From the IMG/VR virus record IMGVR_UViG_3300015371_000026, positions 3,392 through 67,391 of that record: DNA of 64,000 nucleotides. One strand, given 5' to 3'. This document shows, in pieces, positions 7,006-64,000 of the stretch. The position numbers and the translations under genes are program-made. Every line of letters starts with the position of its first letter. The first letter of the stretch is position 1. The DNA comes from a virus. The notes under the pieces were generated by a model. The model saw nothing but the letters and a program-made list of their open reading frames with translations, searched no databases and was not told the origin of the DNA.

Positions 7006-7034
7006 TAGACAGCGCCGCTCTCCGACGCTACACT
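7006..7034 (+). promoter_or_regulatory. Sigma70-type promoter upstream of the late operon
   Basis: TAGACA-N17-TACACT. Confidence 0.6.
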
Positions 7035-7091
7035 GCGCGACGAGTAGGTCGGAAGGCTTACTCGCTCTACCCCTACCCGAACTGGCACTAC

Positions 7092-7120
7092 GGACGGCCA
7101 TCGCGCCGTCCTTTCTCTTT
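7092..7120 (+). terminator. Intrinsic terminator ending a short leader
   Basis: GGACGGC-CATCGC-GCCGTCC-TTTCTCTTT. Confidence 0.65.
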
Positions 7121-7427
7121 GCCTAAGCGCAGCTGCTCATGCGGTCGAGTCGTCGAGCGCGGCACACGGTGCCCAGAACACGCCCGCGCGCCTCGCGACC
7201 GGACGTACGGGAACAGCCGCATCATCGTCAGGTCGAGCGCGCTCGTGTGCTGGATCTGCGGAAAGCCGTTCAGCGAGGACAACCCGCCGACCGCCGACCA
7301 CTTCGTGCCGCGTGACCTCGGAGGCAGCGACGACGTCGCGAACATGCGACCCGCTCATCTCAGCTGCAACATCAGCCGCGGTCGCGCGATGATCACTGGG
7401 AAGGGGGGGAGTGGCCTCCGCCCATAG
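7119..7427 (+). CDS. HNH endonuclease (packaging-associated)
   Basis: CWICG..TADHFVP..GGS..NMRPAHLSCN; position upstream of TerL. Confidence 0.85.
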   Translation: MPKRSCSCGRVVERGTRCPEHARAPRDRTYGNSRIIVRSSALVCWICGKPFSEDNPPTADHFVPRDLGGSDDVANMRPAHLSCNISRGRAMITGKGGSGLRP

Positions 7428-7776
7428 CGCGTGGTTGCGCTGTCCTACCCTCGCCTCTCTCCGCGAGCGAAACTGCGTACGCGTGGTGGCTGGGCGCAGC
7501 TGATGCCGCTGTGAGCGCACTGTCCAGCGGCTCGGTGTTCTGCCACGTGTGCGGCGGCGATATGGCGGACGACTCGTGTACGTGCGGCCATGTGCGCTGC
7601 GCGTGCGGGGGCTGCGAGACGTGCGCCGTTCACTCGCGCCGCTGCTCGTCTGGCGTTAGGGTTCGTGGCGCAGCCTCCGTAGCGATCGCACGGAGCGGTG
7701 ATAGGCCGCACGACGGCGCTTTTGATCGGTACTCACCTCCCGGTCGGAGCGCCGTCGTCGTTCTGGGGGGCGCGTC

Positions 7777-48530: not shown

Positions 48531-49058
48531 TCACCTCACTCCTTCCGCCAGCAGCGGGTCGACCGCCGTGGCCGTGTACATCGGACGATACGTCCCGACC
48601 GGCGCGGCGACGCCGATCGGCCCGACCACCATCTCGTACTGGGCCTGTGCCTGCGCTGCGCTCATGCTCCAGTACGTTCGCAGCGACCAGCGCAGCATGA
48701 CGACCGACCCGAGGTCGGCGTTCTGCTCGTCGTGCTCGTTGAACGCCACGTGCCAGAACTCGTGGTACAAGACGCGCGCTGCCGTCGCCCAGGACAACTG
48801 CATGCGCGGGTCGATGTCACCTGGCTTCCCGTGAAGCAGAAGATCAGCCGCCCATCCCGCGAGCGTGATTCCCTGCTTCCGGTCGCCTGCGTACGCGCAG
48901 CTGTTGTCGTAGCTCCACGTGTACACGGGCATGTCCAGCGGCAGTTTCGCTTCGAGCGCGGGCGACTCGACGCGCCCGTACTCATCTGCGTGTGCAGCCT
49001 GTACGCCGCCAGCGAGTGCGAGCGCGACGACGCAGCCGATGACGAGTAGCTTCGTCAT
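48531..49058 (-). CDS. Secreted HExxH protein
   Basis: Signal peptide ending AAHA; VLYHEFWH..E..AD. Confidence 0.55.
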   Translation of the reverse strand: MTKLLVIGCVVALALAGGVQAAHADEYGRVESPALEAKLPLDMPVYTWSYDNSCAYAGDRKQGITLAGWAADLLLHGKPGDIDPRMQLSWATAARVLYHEFWHVAFNEHDEQNADLGSVVMLRWSLRTYWSMSAAQAQAQYEMVVGPIGVAAPVGTYRPMYTATAVDPLLAEGVR

Positions 49059-49078
49059 CTCTCTCACCTCTTCCCTTC

Positions 49079-49143
49079 GGACTCATCGGTGCGGCCAAGT
49101 AGCCGCAGACGCGCGAACGTCTCAGCGCTCGCGCGTTTCGTCC
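49079..49143 (-). ncRNA. Hammerhead ribozyme, type II (CCGAUGA core variant)
   Basis: GGAC GAA ACGCGCGAGCG cugaga CGUUCGCGCGU C UGCGGC uacuug GCCGCA CCGAUGA GUCC; intergenic. Confidence 0.8.
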
Positions 49144-50798: not shown

Positions 50799-51595
50799 CG
50801 TGCTCACCTCCAGCTTTCTGCGTACTCGCGCGGGTAGCACCACTTCGCCGCCGCCCACGCGTAGTCGCTGATGACTTCGGCCTCAAGATGAGACCACTTC
50901 GGGTCTGCAAGCAGCTCGTCGAGCATCGCGTCTTTCGCAGCTTCGAGATCACCCGCCCGACGACCGATGTCGAGTAGACGCTCGCGATCGCCACGGTCAA
51001 GCTTCACGTATGTCGGCAACTTCGCCATCGCTCACCTCACTCTGTCGTGGTAGTAGACGTTCCAGCCGTCCCAGCGCACGCGGCCGTCCGTCGCCTTCTC
51101 GACTCGCCGCAGCACCTTGCGCGCAGCGTCCATCTCGCTGTACTCCGGCTCGTCGGCGTTCGCGCCCAGGCACCACATCGCGTACTCGGCCAGCACGCAC
51201 GCAGCCTCGTCCGAGGGCAGCTCCAGCCGTAGGCTGTAGCCGCGCCCTCTCGTGATCCGGCGAGCCGCCAGCCAGGCGACGCGCAACTCCCGCGCGCCGC
51301 GCTCGATCTCGGGCTCGTCAGTGTACTGCTGTCCGGCCATGACGCCGGTGCCGCTGAAGTACGTCTCGAACGCTCCTGGCACGTCGATCTGCATCTCACT
51401 CACCCCTCTCCTCGTCTTCGACTTCGAGTCGAACGACCAGACACTCGCCGCGCTGGCCGTGCTCGCTCGCCTCGCGATGCAGCGTGCGCACCGCCGTCTT
51501 CATGCCCTGCTCGTCTTCCGCAGTGGCGCGATCGCCGCTGACCGAATGAACGATCACGTACATCGTGCTCACCTCCCTGTTGCTCGTCTTCCAGA

Positions 51596-51642: not shown

Positions 51643-54160
51643 GCTGCGAGCGACTAGCGCTCGCTTTCCTCAAGCTGCTGGATCTCCGCGTGCGTCTCGC
51701 GCAGCTCAGCTGCCTTGCGCTCGAACTCGTCTGCGATCGTCAGCAGGTTGTCCCCGTTGATCTCCCAGCCGAGATCTTCGCGCCAGTTGCCGCGACGCAG
51801 TACGACGATCGCCTGGCCCATGACTGTCTCGCTCAGCGTCATCGCGATCACTGCTCCTTTACGACGACGTGGAACTGTCGCCCGTCGCGCAGATGAACGA
51901 CGAACCCGCTATCGCGAGTCATCCACGTTCCGCCCGCGTAGTTCTCGGTCGTCGCCTCTTCCAGCTCGTCGACGTCGATCGAGCTGTCGACGTCCTCGGG
52001 ATGCCCGATCGCCTTGTCGACGACCTCCTGCAGAAACATCGCGAACTCGACCTCGGTGAGCGTCTGCTCGTCCTCGTCGGGCTCGTCTTCGCGTGAGTAG
52101 AAGTCGTACATCGCTCTCACCTCTCCGGAATGTTGTACTGGACGTTGAACTCGTACGTCGCGCGCGCCTCTGTTAGCTCGACGCGTGACGCGATCCACAC
52201 CATCTGATCGGTGCGCGTGTTGATCTCGACGAAGTACCGATACCCGGCGGCGACGACCGTCGTGATCTCGCCAGCGTCGGGCTGATCTTTCCAGTCCCAG
52301 ACGATCGGGACGATGTCGATTCGCTCGTTCATCTCAGCTCACCTCGCCTGGGTAACCGTCGGCGACGCAGCTCGGGCAGACGGGTCCGTACTCGTCGACG
52401 CTCCACTGGCCGCACTTGCAAAGGCCAGCCTGCTCGTTCAAGCCGACGGCGATCTTCGACGCCAGCTCGACCATCTTGGCGTAGCGCGCGGCCGCGACCG
52501 GCGAGACGCTTCCGTGCGCCTGCCAGTTCACCTCTGCGCCCTTCAGCTCTCCGCCGAAGCGCTCCTCTGGCTTCCAGATCTCGACCTTCGCCAGCGGTGT
52601 CGCGGGCTGCTCGTTCGGCCACAGCTCCAGCGAGTAGTGGCTTCCGTCCTCGATCTTGTACAGCGTCGTGTTCTCGTCCTTACTGATGACGATTAGCTCC
52701 TTCATCGTTCCTCACCTCCCTGCGCGCTCGCGCGCGCGTCGACTTTTGTTGTGCGTCTCTCGCACCGGGCCGCTCCGGTCAGAGCCGGAGTCGACCGCTA
52801 CGGCCGCAGTCATCGCAGACTTCCGCGCCGTAGCTCGACCAGCTCGAACTGGTCGAGATCGTCTCTACTGGCGTAGTGGAGCGCGAGCGTGTCGCGACCG
52901 CGCTGGATCGCCTCGACGTACGTTTGCGCGATCACGTCTGTTGTACGTCCGAACCCCATGCGCTCGTGGCGCCAGGCCAGCTTCCATTCGTAGGCTCGGT
53001 CTCTCATCGTTCTCACCTCTCCTCTGCGATGTCGACGAAGTCGACGCCGCTTCCGTAGGGATAGCCGTTGACGACGCTCGCGTGAACAAGCTCGTCGCCG
53101 CGCGTGTACAGCGTGACGCGGAGCCCGTTCGTCGCGAGCGCTCGCGCGTTCTCTGCCACGACCGCGTTCGCGCGCTTCGAGTACAGGATCGCGTAGGCGT
53201 GACCGAACCCGTGAAGACCGTCGCCGTGGGTACGAACGCCGAAGTCCTTGTAGCAGCCTGCTCGACGATCGCTGCGCCAACGAAGTCCGAGCGCGCTCAG
53301 CTCGTCGCGGATCTTCTGTGCCTGGAGCGTGATCATCGCTCTCACCTCTCGTCGTAGTAGTGGTCGACCATCTCGACGTGCACGGGCGTCTCCACTCGCG
53401 GGAACGCCTCCGCCCAGGAGACGACTCGCCCGTCCGGCATCCGGACGGCGTTGATCGCGACGTCGTACGCCGCGTCGATGTGCTGCTTCTTCTTCATCGT
53501 TCTCACCTCGCCTCGCGCGTACGCGCGTCTACGAACAGGCGCTCTCGATCTCGAAGCGCTCGTCCTCGGTCATCGTCTTCCACACTTTCCGGATGCGCGC
53601 CTCGATCCCCGTGCGGAACTGCAGCGGGCGCGTTCGAGCCTCGAATACCAGCTTCCAGTATGTCTCGACGTTCGTCATCGTGCTCACCTCTCCTCGATCT
53701 CGTAGGACGCTGCCTTGCGACTGTCGCCACCAGCGACGTCGCGGCGCGCGTTCAGATTGCGTCGACGCAAAAGATCCTGCGCCATCAGCTCGACGTTCTC
53801 GCGCGAACTCGCGATACGAAGACGCGCGCTGCCGATCTGCTCTCCGTCCTTCGTCAGAAGTTTGATCAGGTACTTCATCGTCGCTCACCTCTCAGTCTCT
53901 CTCGTCGATCTGCTCGCCCTTGCACCGGAACTTCCAGCAGCAAAGACCCGTCAGTACGATGTACAGCTCGATAGCGATCAGAACGATCATCGCTCTCACC
54001 TCTCCTCGCGGTCGAGCAGAACGTGCAGGCTCGACCAGTTGTGCATGAAGTCGTGCGCCCAGCTTGAAACGTCCAGCAGCATAAGCGCGACGTGCGCGCC
54101 GTGGATGACGAACTCGAACATGTGTCTCGCTCCGTTCCGCAGGCGACGTTTGCGCCCGCT

Positions 54161-54219
54161 CGAAGTTTCGGCCGTGCTCTCGGCCATCGTCAGCGCGCCA
54201 GCGTTAGGCGCGGACTTCG
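54161..54219 (-). ncRNA. Hammerhead ribozyme, type III
   Basis: CGAAGU C CGCGCC uaacgcu GGCGCG CUGACGA u GGCCG agagca CGGCC GAA ACUUCG. Confidence 0.85.
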
Positions 54220-54643
54220 TTCGTAACTCATCTGCCACATTCCGAGACTCGCGCGCGTCGCGTCTTATCTACTCGGCCGACTAACGACGCGTCCTGCACT
54301 CGCTGGCGTCTTCGCCGCGCGTCACCGCTTCGTTCGTTCGCTCTCGCTCGTTCGGCTCGTCAGCCTGCCCCGGCTCTCGTGCATCCGGGCGGCTCGCTTC
54401 TCGCGCGCGAGTCTCGTACTGCGTGTGACGCTCGCTCGTCTCGCGTCGTTCGTTAGTGGCTTCGTCATCTGTTATCCGGCTTTCGTTAGTTGGGCTATCG
54501 AGGGAGTCGCGCGTTCGACTCGGAATCTCGATCCCCGCTACTCGCCGGTGACCGCGGGGGGCTGTTCTCGGGAGGTCGCCCCTTCACCTTATGGCCCTCG
54601 TCTCGCGCTCTCTCGCTCTCTCTCCTCTCTCTCGACTAGCTAC

Positions 54644-54672
54644 ATCGTACGTCTTACGTACGAATCTGTATA
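54644..54672 (-). promoter_or_regulatory. Leftward promoter with overlapping inverted repeat (operator candidate)
   Basis: TATACA-N17-TACGAT on the minus strand; TCGTACGT-ctt-ACGTACGA at 54645-54663; locally AT-rich. Confidence 0.5.
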
Positions 54673-54778
54673 CGAAGAATCTACGTATGGCTCTAAGGAA
54701 ATCTATGGAAATAGCGACTTTTTTGGACGAGGAATGGCTCGCCAAGCGCTCTCGCGTCTGGGATACTGCGTCGACTCG

Positions 54779-54970
54779 ATGAGCCAGAACGACCTCTCCA
54801 GCGAGCCCGTCTTCGAGGCGTACGTGGGCGCACCGTGCGAGCGCGAGCTACACCAAGCGCTGACGAAGATCGCGCGACGTAACGACCGCAGTCTCGCCGC
54901 AGAGATCAGACGCGCGCTACGACGACACGTCGAGCGGGAAACGCCGGAGCTACCGGCGGCAACGGCATGA
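54779..54970 (+). CDS. Arc/RHH-type regulator
   Basis: ELHQALTKIARRNDRSLAAEIRRAL. Confidence 0.7.
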   Translation: MSQNDLSSEPVFEAYVGAPCERELHQALTKIARRNDRSLAAEIRRALRRHVERETPELPAATA

Positions 54971-56115
54971 ACACAGCGACGACGAACGTCACTGACGTCT
55001 CACCCGTCGAGGCGAATCGCGTCAACGCATACGTGACGACGACGCGGCGTGGTCGCTACTACTCGTGGCGTGACGAGAACTTCTGGAGCGTCACGACGAT
55101 GATCAACGGCGGCGTTCCGAAGGGCGACGTACTCGTCAACTGGGCCAAGAAGTTCACAGCTGAGTACGCGTGCGACAACTTCGAGCAGCTGCGCCAACTT
55201 CTAACGCCGCGCGGCGGTAGTTCGCGCGACATCGACCTCGAACTCGCTGCCGCACAGATCGAGGCGATCGCGCGTCTCGTCGAGATCGCGCGTACGAGTA
55301 ACGTCGAAATCGACCGCGAACTCGCGCTGGCGCAGCTTCGCGCCGTCGCTGTCGCGCTTCAGTCGCGCGGCGGGTACGTCGACAGGGACGCAGCTGTCCA
55401 GTGGCTGAAGGACGCCGCGTATCGCGACCGCGATCGCAAAGGCCAGCTCGGCGAGAAGATCCACGACGCCATCGAGGCGTACGTGCTCGGCCAGCCGTTT
55501 CCGAAGTGGACGCCCGACATTCTCCCGCGTATGAACGCGTTCGAGCGGTTCCTGGCACGCTACGAACCGAACTACGAGATCGGGATGACAGAGGCGTCGG
55601 TGTTCAATCGGTCTCACCGCTACGCCGGTCGCGCCGACACAGTCTTCGAGATCGGACGAGGTCCGCATAAAGGACGACGCGTGCTGAACGACTACAAGTC
55701 TGGCGGGAAGGACGTCTACCCAGAAGCCGCGCTTCAGCTCGCTGCGTATCGTCGCGCAGAGTTCGTCGGTGCGCCAGACGGCTCGGAGCAGCCGATGCCG
55801 CCTGTCGACATGACTACGGTGCTCTGGCTGCCTGACGACGGCGAGTTCCGACTGGTCGAGGTCGCGACGACAGACGACGTCTTCCGCGCGTTCCTATACG
55901 TGCGCGAGAACTATCGCTGGGCTGACTCGATCAGTAAAGGTGTCGTGCTCGGAAACGTCGCGAGCGACCCGCCGCAGCCAGCATCTGACGCTGAGCGCGA
56001 ACTCGCGAACGAGCTAGCACGTTCTGATTCGCCCCACGGCGAAGAGGGGGAGGGCGAGGCCAGCGCTGGCGGCGAACAGGTCATCGCTCTCCCCCTCCCC
56101 CCGGAGAAGACGTGA
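54967..56115 (+). CDS. PD-(D/E)xK exonuclease (RecE/Cas4-like)
   Basis: SVTT, G.KIHDAIE, YAGRAD, DYKSG, QLAAY. Confidence 0.8.
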   Translation: MNTATTNVTDVSPVEANRVNAYVTTTRRGRYYSWRDENFWSVTTMINGGVPKGDVLVNWAKKFTAEYACDNFEQLRQLLTPRGGSSRDIDLELAAAQIEAIARLVEIARTSNVEIDRELALAQLRAVAVALQSRGGYVDRDAAVQWLKDAAYRDRDRKGQLGEKIHDAIEAYVLGQPFPKWTPDILPRMNAFERFLARYEPNYEIGMTEASVFNRSHRYAGRADTVFEIGRGPHKGRRVLNDYKSGGKDVYPEAALQLAAYRRAEFVGAPDGSEQPMPPVDMTTVLWLPDDGEFRLVEVATTDDVFRAFLYVRENYRWADSISKGVVLGNVASDPPQPASDAERELANELARSDSPHGEEGEGEASAGGEQVIALPLPPEKT

Positions 56116-62787: not shown

Positions 62788-63165
62788 ATGAAGCAAGTCC
62801 CAGGCACATGGGAGCACGGCGAACCGCCCGCACCGCAGCAGATACCGCGATCGGAAGCTGGTCCCGTGCTGCGCGGTCTCGAAGCAGAGGGCGCGCTGTA
62901 CGTGCGTCTCTATCGGATGGGCGAGTGCGCGATCGTCGTCTCGCGCGAACCGTGCGGACCAGGAGGTTCGTACGCGTGGCATCTCTCGATCTCTCACCTC
63001 GATCGACATCCGAGCTGGGACGAGATCAAAGCTGCACGCTACTGGCTGCTGCCTGACGCGCTGATGTTCGCGATGCTGCTACCGCCGAGCGAGGAGTATT
63101 TCAACCTGCCCGCGCAGGATCACGTCTTTCACATGTACGAGATCCCAGACCCGGAGATGTCGTGA
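62788..63165 (+). CDS. Conserved phage protein
   Basis: WHLSISH..RHPSWDEIK..LPP.EEY.N..FH. Confidence 0.7.
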   Translation: MKQVPGTWEHGEPPAPQQIPRSEAGPVLRGLEAEGALYVRLYRMGECAIVVSREPCGPGGSYAWHLSISHLDRHPSWDEIKAARYWLLPDALMFAMLLPPSEEYFNLPAQDHVFHMYEIPDPEMS

Positions 63166-63888
63166 CTGATCTCAACCCGGAACAGCGCCCCACCTTTGTA
63201 ACAGAATGGAGGACAGCATGAGCAGCCACTACCACGAGCCGAGTTGTCGATGCGATCAGTGTGCGCCCCGCGCTGGCTCTGTCGGGGTCGCACCGAGAGA
63301 CGCGGACTTTCCTCCGGGCTTCAAATGGAATGAGGAGGAAGGGAGGCCTGTCTTTGCCCCACCGCCCATGAGTCCCGAGGACATTGAGAAGCAGTTGCGG
63401 GTACTCGCGCCGACGTTGGATCGGGCGGAGGAGTTGCTGTGGCAGGCTGGGCATCCGCGTATCGCCGAGCAGCTTCACTCCGAGATTCGTCAACTCTTTC
63501 TCCAGGCAAGGATTTTGTGGCCCGAGGCTACGGGTGACTGATCTCAACCCGGAACAGGGCACCACGACCCCGGCTTTCGACGGCTGCGAGCTTCCGCCTG
63601 ATCTCTGGAACGAGGAAGGCTCGCGCGTCTGGATCCGCTACGACCTCTGCGAGAACGCGGCTAAGGCCCGTTACAAGGCGTGGAAGGGGATCGGCCTGCC
63701 GATTGGCTTCGCACCTCCTGACGGCGACTCCGATCTGATCGACCTACGGGTGCGCGTCGTCTGGGCGAGGTTCGCCCCGGACGATCCCGTGTGGGACGAG
63801 TGGCCGTGGAAGATGTGCGGCCGTGACGACCACGGCGCGGTGAAGTTCTGGGAGGTTGCGGCCGATGCGTGATCTCAACCCGGAACAG
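63162..63888 (+). repeat. Direct repeats at gene junctions
   Basis: GTGACTGATCTCAACCCGGAACAG at 63162-63185 and 63534-63557; last 19 nt again at 63870-63888. Confidence 0.9.
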
Positions 63889-64000
63889 GTGCGGGGAATC
63901 ATCGAAGCCACGTGGCGATTGAACACGTCCGCCATTCACTCGCCGGTCAGCATGGACGAGGTGCGCGCGTTGGCTCAGTCTTGGCTGGCTCAGGGGGAAG

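Follow-up and report, generated by a model that had tools for sequence, protein, structure and literature searches.

Hammerhead ribozyme at a divergent junction

We analyzed a 64,000-nt window (bases 3392-67391) of the 67,391-bp virus record IMGVR_UViG_3300015371_000026, the ends of which are direct terminal repeats, and focused on a divergent junction without a credible gene (54122-54733). A hammerhead ribozyme lies at the left end of this junction, on the minus strand, preceded by a proposed untranslated leader RNA (54213-54637, minus strand) that was delimited from composition, codon statistics and candidate -10 hexamers, with an inferred transcription start site (TSS). To the left of the junction, a block of mostly small leftward genes extends from ~41.3 kb to 54.1 kb; to the right, a rightward block starts at 54734. 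Rightward structural genes occupy ~1-40 kb of the window.

The ribozyme is of type III and spans 54160-54220 (minus strand), as identified by a match to RF00008, a descriptor scan and a family model. Along the RNA, the 5' strand of a 6-bp stem III (54219-54214 with 54166-54161) leads into the cleavage site, a GUC with the cut placed after C 54213. Stem I (6 bp, 54212-54207 with 54199-54194) follows, then the core segment CUGACGA (54193-54187), an extra U between A9 and G10.1 (54186), stem II (5 bp, 54185-54181 with 54174-54170) and the core segment GAA (54169-54167). The core is complete, with C3, U4, G5, A6, N7, G8 and A9, with G12, A13 and A14, with the A15.1-U16.1 pair and with H17 at the cleavage site. 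Stems I and II are closed by loops and stem III is open, and the minimum free energy (MFE) structure of the isolated 81 nt is the hammerhead fold. With a 121-nt query and lax filters, the full RF00008 model matched at 35.5 bits (E 1.2e-6). Rfam gave no match at the gathering threshold over the whole window, and on 3 kb at E <= 10 it returned a single chance match and missed the hammerhead. The descriptor scan found exactly one hammerhead in the window. Two further sites were rejected for lack of an intact core: 49041-49115, which RF00008 scored at 14.5 bits in a genome scan that missed the real site, and 50925-50984. We conclude that the hammerhead at 54160-54220 is genuine as judged from its sequence and its family, and that it is predicted to cleave. 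With a real hammerhead at the left end of the non-coding stretch, a leftward transcript that reaches the first gene would have to be cut after 54213. This agrees with the original prediction, which had a hammerhead make the 3' end of an upstream RNA; the intact core and the family membership described below both support that part of it.

The ribozyme ends 38 nt before an ATG at 54121. This remainder of the 5' untranslated region (UTR; 54122-54159, minus strand, assigned from sequence and folding) contains a small hairpin and then a ribosome-binding site, GGAGCGAG (54133-54126), separated from the ATG by a 4-nt gap. The ATG behind GGAGCGAG is most likely the start of the first leftward gene (53996-54121, minus strand, 41 codons), which has a codon score of 0.39 and a GC content at third codon positions (GC3) of 0.88. 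A 39-codon N-terminal extension from a GTG at 54238 (54122-54238) has a codon score of -0.01 and a GC3 of 0.69, and an 80-aa form of the gene product found no matches in Pfam or PHROG.

The first rightward gene (54734-54970, plus strand) encodes a ribbon-helix-helix (RHH) protein of the CopG/Arc-like kind, a candidate regulator of the junction, with matches to PF01402 (19.8 bits) and PF22513 (20.5 bits) that both fall just under the cut-offs; an AGGA directly abuts its ATG. It is followed by a Cas4/RecB-type exonuclease (54967-56115; PHROG 298, E 9e-31) and a PF18897 Gp3-like protein. The exonuclease shares at most 38% identity with the best database phages, whose hosts are Arthrobacter, Microbacterium and Streptomyces, and the window has a GC content of ~65%. 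By these sequence comparisons the junction belongs to a novel actinophage-like genome. A retron, a diversity-generating retroelement or a CRISPR-like system was considered and rejected, as both a reverse transcriptase and a repeat array are absent nearby. A crude gene caller based on codon scores left other long stretches of the window without a coding-like open reading frame (ORF), at 7009-7776, 2187-2829 and 62789-64000, with lengths comparable to that of the junction. Contigs with matching sequence occur in four metagenome DNA runs from rhizosphere and soil. Over 53000-56000 they show a single listed difference, at 53833, and zero differences inside the leader, so that there is no natural variation to use.

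The ribozyme subfamily and its downstream genes

A search pattern that combined the ribozyme core with the extra position and stem II was run on viral, metagenome and prokaryote collections, and matched 4 viral contigs, more than 108 metagenome contigs and 3 prokaryote contigs. Among the matches listed, nine are other type III copies (L067:7664-7743, L068:2951-3016, L069:9180-9243, L070:6699-6763, L076:1731-1794, L128:610-674, L148:252-315, L162:10345-10408 and L170:1574-1638), which makes a subfamily of 10 copies including that of the window. All have stem II as GGCCG/CGGCC and one extra pyrimidine after A9, which in the nine others is U seven times and C twice. The sequences of stems I and III differ among the copies, with one stem I mismatch in L076. 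The copies sit in high-GC or mid-GC phage-like contigs. The window ribozyme and L128 share loop sequences in which GCU could pair with AGC, a loop-loop contact of 3 bp. The three prokaryote loci, at 21-35 bits, contained no convincing type III copy. The core-plus-stem-II pattern also occurs in over 100 low-GC metagenome contigs (31-47%; most of L071-L178), as part of a repeated element whose topology differs and is type I-like, sometimes with two opposite copies a few hundred bases apart.

Eight of the 10 copies were aligned with MAFFT; L067 and L068, which have a longer stem I and were shifted by MAFFT, were excluded. In this alignment 98.5% of 136 cells pair, while a control with slid partners leaves only 33-48% of cells paired. 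Changes on both sides of a pair are found at all six pairs of stem I and at four of the six pairs of stem III, and these values were matched by 0 of 500 shuffles. Stem II is uninformative for covariation, since the search pattern fixed it. A model built from the eight sequences scored the left-out L067 and L068 at 54 bits. On the window, with filters off, the same model found one copy only, and the next best sites, at 15.3 and 11.3 bits, lack an intact core.

The subfamily also has a consistent genomic position. Downstream, in all 10 copies, window included, GAAAC is followed at 13-70 nt by the ATG or GTG of an ORF with 30 codons or more, and a GGAG-type, Shine-Dalgarno-like motif often precedes this start codon. 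A number of these ORFs are long, with a GC3 typical of coding sequence, and the encoded proteins are mutually unrelated. The upstream side is variable. In L069, L162 and L148 the ribozyme directly follows the end of a gene on its own strand, and frame periodicity points to the same in L068, whereas at least 200 nt of non-coding sequence precede it in L067 (~1.1 kb without periodicity), L076 (between divergent genes, with AT-rich islands) and L128. The L170 ribozyme lies too near the contig end for its upstream context to be read. Similarity between the window and the nine loci is limited to the ribozyme. Thus, the conserved partner of the subfamily ribozyme is the start of a downstream gene, not an upstream RNA. 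We found no relevant literature on hammerheads in actinobacteriophages or mycobacteriophages, the published hammerhead list of PMC3088659 not having been compared.

Composition, folding and ancestry of the leader

Read from 54637 to 54213, the minus-strand RNA consists of 155 G, 117 A, 115 C and 38 U in 425 nt (9% U, 64% purine), and the five least-U 300-nt windows of the minus strand all fall in the leader region. The plus strand has a comparably T-poor stretch near 40.5 kb. In 54122-54733 there is no ORF that both has a start codon and shows coding-type codon use. A frame of ~100 codons without a start runs open from 54583 to 54283, because stop codons need U and U is scarce. A possible 30-codon upstream ORF (54495-54587, minus strand) has a GTG start with GAGGG 7 nt upstream, and is non-coding-like in its codon score (-0.47) and GC3 (0.68). 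There are no terminator-like sites in 53500-55200, and the leader is without U-runs. The motif TTCGTTAGT, which reads ACUAACGAA on the minus-strand RNA, has exactly two copies, at 54449-54457 and 54482-54490. With up to one mismatch allowed, five of its nine matches in the 64-kb window lie within the 275 nt of 54216-54490, one of them inverted. A motif scan combined with repeat analysis places the ACUAACGAA / ACGAACGAA motifs of the minus strand at 54482-54490, 54449-54457, 54329-54337 and 54216-54224, and a complementary copy at 54280-54288.

A long-range helix closes a 184-nt domain of the leader (54238-54421, minus strand). Its arms, 54402-54421 and 54238-54257, are 20 nt long and complementary at 18 of 20 positions (90%). 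Fifteen Watson-Crick pairs are contiguous, a run length attained by 0 of 300 dinucleotide shuffles of the 425-nt leader, the shuffle maximum being 11. In every transcript context tested the helix had a pairing probability of 1.0, and its two mismatches fail to pair whichever strand is considered. The repeat has a third, imperfect copy (54508-54526), which is part of a local hairpin at 54496-54533 (minus strand; inverted repeat of 79%, present in the centroid structure). The whole 425-nt leader has an MFE of -152.9 kcal/mol and a z score of -0.98, with 15 of 100 shuffles as stable, and sliding 120-nt windows of the minus strand range from -1.4 to +1.7. The 188-nt stretch bounded by the repeat, picked after the repeat had been seen, had z scores of -4.08 (minus strand) and -3.95 (plus strand), with 0 of 200 shuffles as stable in each case. 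In a 331-nt context, the MFE structure shows the closed domain, the native hammerhead and the hairpin before the ribosome-binding site side by side (z -2.07). By these folding models a very stable domain can form; that RNA rather than DNA is the selected object does not follow. An insertion of the miniature inverted-repeat transposable element type, bounded by the inverted repeat, was rejected, as neither a target duplication in the flanks nor a second copy was found.

These results bear on how the original prediction described the leader. That no credible gene lies between its promoter and the ribozyme agrees with the ORF and codon statistics, and the purine-rich runs with a motif present twice are borne out by the purine content and by the two exact TTCGTTAGT sites. 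The 14-bp stem it drew between 54244-54257 and 54402-54415 exists and is in fact one pair longer when counted as contiguous pairs. Its description of the leader as structured holds for the domain closed by this stem, but neither for the 425 nt as a whole nor as a property of one strand.

The right part of the junction is an AT-rich island (54616-54750), which contains the lowest GC of the 64-kb window (36.7% in 60 nt), three candidate leftward -10 hexamers and a palindrome. The palindrome is perfect, 19 bp long (8-3-8; 54645-54663, read from the sequence), overlaps the -10 candidate TACGAT (54649-54644) and lies 70 nt upstream of the RHH gene; from its sequence and position it is likely an operator. 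Just to its right are further 6-bp palindromes (GTATAC, TACGTA). In a looser scan for actinobacterial or sigma-A-type -10 elements (TANNNT), the minus strand of 54200-54760 holds only four hexamers, with first bases at 54705, 54683, 54649 and 54591. The first three are the candidates within the island, and none lies between 54590 and the ribozyme. The plus strand has no TANNNT in 54500-54800, ahead of the rightward RHH-exonuclease operon. TACGAT would set the TSS near 54637, the coordinate given in the original prediction, and the leader would then be 425 nt long; depending on the -10 candidate used, its length may be ~365-480 nt. Since the rightward neighbors all lie on the opposite strand, the leftward transcript that bears the ribozyme presumably starts inside the junction or antisense to the RHH gene. 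A polypurine, GA-rich tract read from the sequence forms the 5' end of the proposed leader (54598-54637, minus strand); as DNA it is a ~40-bp polypurine/polypyrimidine mirror repeat directly left of the AT-rich island. Such mirror repeats can form triplex DNA.

We found no relative of the leader. A DNA search of 54100-54800 in a phage database gave no match, and searches with the exonuclease and the Gp3-like protein found no close relatives in viral contigs; among 5.8 billion proteins, exonuclease homologues reach at most 58% identity. An alignment of 32 exonuclease homologues led to 64 viral loci, which share with the window only the exonuclease and Gp3-like pair. None of the 64 contains the leader (nothing by nhmmer; best blastn E 0.008), a hammerhead or the leftward genes of the window, and the closest ones show no strand switch upstream of the exonuclease. 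No leader homologue occurs in the nine subfamily ribozyme loci, and Rfam, run on 54215-54740 with lax filters, gave only a chance-level match (E 4.4). The motif pair ACTAACGAA...ACTAACGAA occurs at no fewer than 117 loci in viral contigs; among the matches listed, GC is at most 55% and none is leader-like. Two low-GC viral contigs, L268 and L290, carry operator-like ACTAACG-N5-CGTTAGT palindromes between TTGACA and TATAAT-like hexamers. Their half-site is the motif repeated in both orientations in the window leader, probably by coincidence. The leader is thus an orphan among the collections searched, and with no homologues covariation support cannot be obtained now.

Function of the leader and comparison with known systems

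We favor, with a little better than even confidence, the explanation that the stretch is a long untranslated 5' leader of the leftward operon, removed by a hammerhead that acts as a natural RiboJ-like insulator. Transcription would start in the AT-rich island, at ~54637-54693, and head leftward through the U-poor, purine-rich leader, the last 184 nt of which would become locked into a domain by the 15-bp GC-rich helix. At 18 nt beyond this domain, the type III hammerhead would fold and cut itself co-transcriptionally after C54213, as its intact core and its family suggest. The upstream product would be a leader fragment that ends in a 2',3'-cyclic phosphate. The downstream product would be the operon mRNA with a 5'-OH, the hairpins of stems I and II and a 91-nt 5' UTR to the ATG at 54121. 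The ribozyme would thereby give the mRNA a fixed 5' end regardless of promoter or leader, as RiboJ does. The composition and the closed domain of the leader may be traits of a long untranslated spacer over regulatory DNA; we would guess that they could limit terminators, Rho and RNase sites, and interference with ribozyme folding. Of this picture, the analysis shows the sequence features, the membership of the ribozyme in a family and its fixed position before gene starts.

Several observations weigh against it. The RF00008 score is below the Rfam gathering threshold of 48.5 bits, and the extra U beside stem II is an insertion directly next to the core, which the published hammerhead screen, as passages of PMC3088659 describe it, would have flagged. 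[quoted passage not shown] The leftward promoter of the original prediction turns out to be only a guess: a consensus scan of 53500-55200 for sigma-70-type promoters found 0 sites, and the TANNNT hexamers are candidates. Among the sequencing runs listed for the sequence, none is on record as RNA. The combination seen here does not recur, as none of the eight other ribozyme loci tested unites a significant long-range repeat with upstream sequence strongly depleted in U; the hairpin of L069 is local and 14 nt long (reached by 0 of 100 shuffles), and the upstream region of L162, at 11% U, is largely coding. RNAs with a 5'-OH are substrates of RNase J in some Gram-positive bacteria, as work on the glmS ribozyme indicates. 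The 5'-OH could therefore mark the mRNA for RNase J, and the effect on mRNA stability or expression could go either way. Finally, a helix of 15 bp, such extreme depletion of U and a cluster of motifs exceed the needs of a passive spacer. As unexplained features, they leave room for three rivals: gating of the ribozyme by the leader, a role at the DNA level as operators or an origin-like region, and a functional released non-coding RNA (ncRNA).

Equilibrium folding of the full leader with the ribozyme is ambiguous, which counts against insulation and is the starting point for gating. Stem III pairs with a mean probability of 0.00-0.47 in five transcripts of at least 457 nt and of 0.20 in a 319-nt transcript, against 0.94 in the 83-nt ribozyme alone, and the structure with the hammerhead enforced lies 2.9 kcal/mol above the free MFE, a difference within model error. 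Leader segments might pair with the region of the cleavage site and make self-cleavage conditional, so that the leader would serve as a cis-regulatory switch. A candidate competing helix, 54600-54617 with 54200-54215, uses the 5' end of the leader, and in three transcripts from 54637 stems I and III pair with probabilities of 0.00-0.18, versus 0.94-0.98 for the ribozyme alone. These probabilities are higher with other 5' ends (0.32/0.36 from 54693 and 0.47/0.96 from 54578). Against gating, the energy difference is within model error for a 488-nt RNA, and the calculation describes equilibrium rather than co-transcriptional folding. An Rfam scan of the leader found no ligand-binding or known switch motif, and the alternative helices have no homologues for comparison. 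We regard gating as very improbable. Less remote, though still doubtful, is that the features act as DNA, as operators or an origin-like region between the divergent operons, possibly bound by the adjacent RHH protein. The sites would be the three 19-bp copies (54239-54257, 54402-54421 and 54508-54526), the CGTTAGT-type motifs in both orientations and the AT-rich island with its palindrome. The leader RNA would then arise incidentally from transcription through this control region and be discarded by the ribozyme. The inverted repeat and the domain stability are indeed strand-symmetric, down to the two helix mismatches that pair on neither strand; the third repeat copy is present, partial and inverted; the AT-rich island is the stretch of lowest GC in the window; and the RHH gene starts 70 nt from the palindrome. 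Against this, the 19-bp repeat site is not above chance elsewhere in the window (10 matches versus 15.3 expected), the motif spacing is irregular (113, 116 and 33 nt), unlike that of iterons, the strand asymmetry in U and purine content on the transcribed strand is unexplained by protein-binding sites, and no replication initiator was identified nearby. A DNA-level role is compatible with the insulated-leader explanation and not exclusive of it.

The original prediction took the released RNA of ~425 nt for a stand-alone ncRNA: a decoy, a sponge or an antitermination RNA. As a functional phage ncRNA it might act through ACUAACGAA / ACGAACGAA as a decoy or sponge for an RNA-binding factor of host or phage, with a 3' end made by the hammerhead and protected by the cyclic phosphate and the nearby 15-bp helix. 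The helix far beyond chance, the z score of -4.08 for the 184-nt domain, the clustering of the motif (5 of 9 window matches in 275 nt) and the lowest U among 300-nt windows of the minus strand would all fit such an RNA, and a 3' end defined by a ribozyme has a precedent in the theta ribozymes beside phage tRNAs described in parts of PMC10879173. The leader has no homologue anywhere searched, neither in the 64 + 9 loci nor in the phage database, and hence neither conservation nor covariation. It has no Rfam family either, as the check proposed with the prediction returned nothing above chance. The z score of the whole leader is unremarkable, the domain is equally stable on the plus strand, and the ribozyme subfamily is linked to downstream ORF starts rather than to upstream RNAs. 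Neither specific role gained ground. Antitermination meets a region, 53500-55200, with 0 terminator-like sites, and for a decoy or sponge, a comparison of the leader with the rest of the window, other phage transcripts included, revealed neither complementary nor repeated segments above chance (best E 0.15). We therefore consider a stand-alone ncRNA unlikely. A fuller version seems slightly less likely again: the cut-off leader as a product in its own right, a U-poor, nuclease-resistant RNA of ~425 nt with a locked 184-nt domain and 4-5 ACUAACGAA-type motifs, which would accumulate early and titrate an RNA-binding factor. If true, a hammerhead would set the 3' end of a trans-acting ncRNA of a bacterial virus, a counterpart of tRNA processing by theta ribozymes; the leader gains this importance only if RNA data show accumulation.

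Known systems resemble parts of the insulated-leader arrangement. The phage and prophage type III hammerheads of Perreault et al. 2011 (PMC3088659, in the parts that describe them) share with the window ribozyme the core, the three-helix topology with an open stem III, the GUC and an intergenic position in a phage. Prophage hammerheads that flank genes were proposed there to cut long phage transcripts into mRNAs, so that the proposed role, a long phage transcript cut into a defined mRNA, is also alike. They differ in that several copies flank genes, whereas here a single copy stands at the start of an operon behind a long non-coding leader. Transcript processing by a phage hammerhead would be of a known kind; the unusual part here is the orphan leader ahead of it. 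Relative to the RF00008 kind, the window ribozyme is set apart by the extra U between A9 and G10.1, a sub-threshold score and its being missed by default filters. The CChMVd (+) hammerhead has an extra residue at the same core position, according to parts of PMC3705267; it is a viroid ribozyme with a natural extra A, whereas the phage ribozyme has U. The subfamily, with its fixed stem II and one additional pyrimidine after A9, would escape routine annotation, as it falls under the Rfam threshold and filters, so that counts of ribozyme-processed 5' ends in high-GC phages may be too low.

The theta ribozymes, which are HDV-like (hepatitis delta virus), are alike as small phage self-cleaving ribozymes that would define the 3' end of an upstream non-coding RNA (PMC10879173). 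They belong to another ribozyme class, and their upstream RNA is a recognizable tRNA rather than an orphan leader. After cleavage by a type III hammerhead such as that of the window, 7 nt of the ribozyme would also stay attached to the upstream product, unlike with theta ribozymes. A parallel in layout is RiboJ, a hammerhead in a 5' UTR that strips off the upstream RNA and leaves an mRNA whose 5' end is fixed and lies ahead of a hairpin and a ribosome-binding site. It has been used for uniform transcripts in the actinobacterium Corynebacterium glutamicum (PMC8942793). The junction has the same layout, with a hammerhead, a hairpin and GGAGCGAG in that order within the 5' UTR, ahead of the ATG of the first gene. 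RiboJ is engineered, whereas the arrangement in the window is natural, and a buffering of expression is suggested here only by analogy. If the proposed explanation is right, the junction would be a clean natural example of the RiboJ design, in which a phage hammerhead uncouples the operon mRNA from a regulation-heavy leader.

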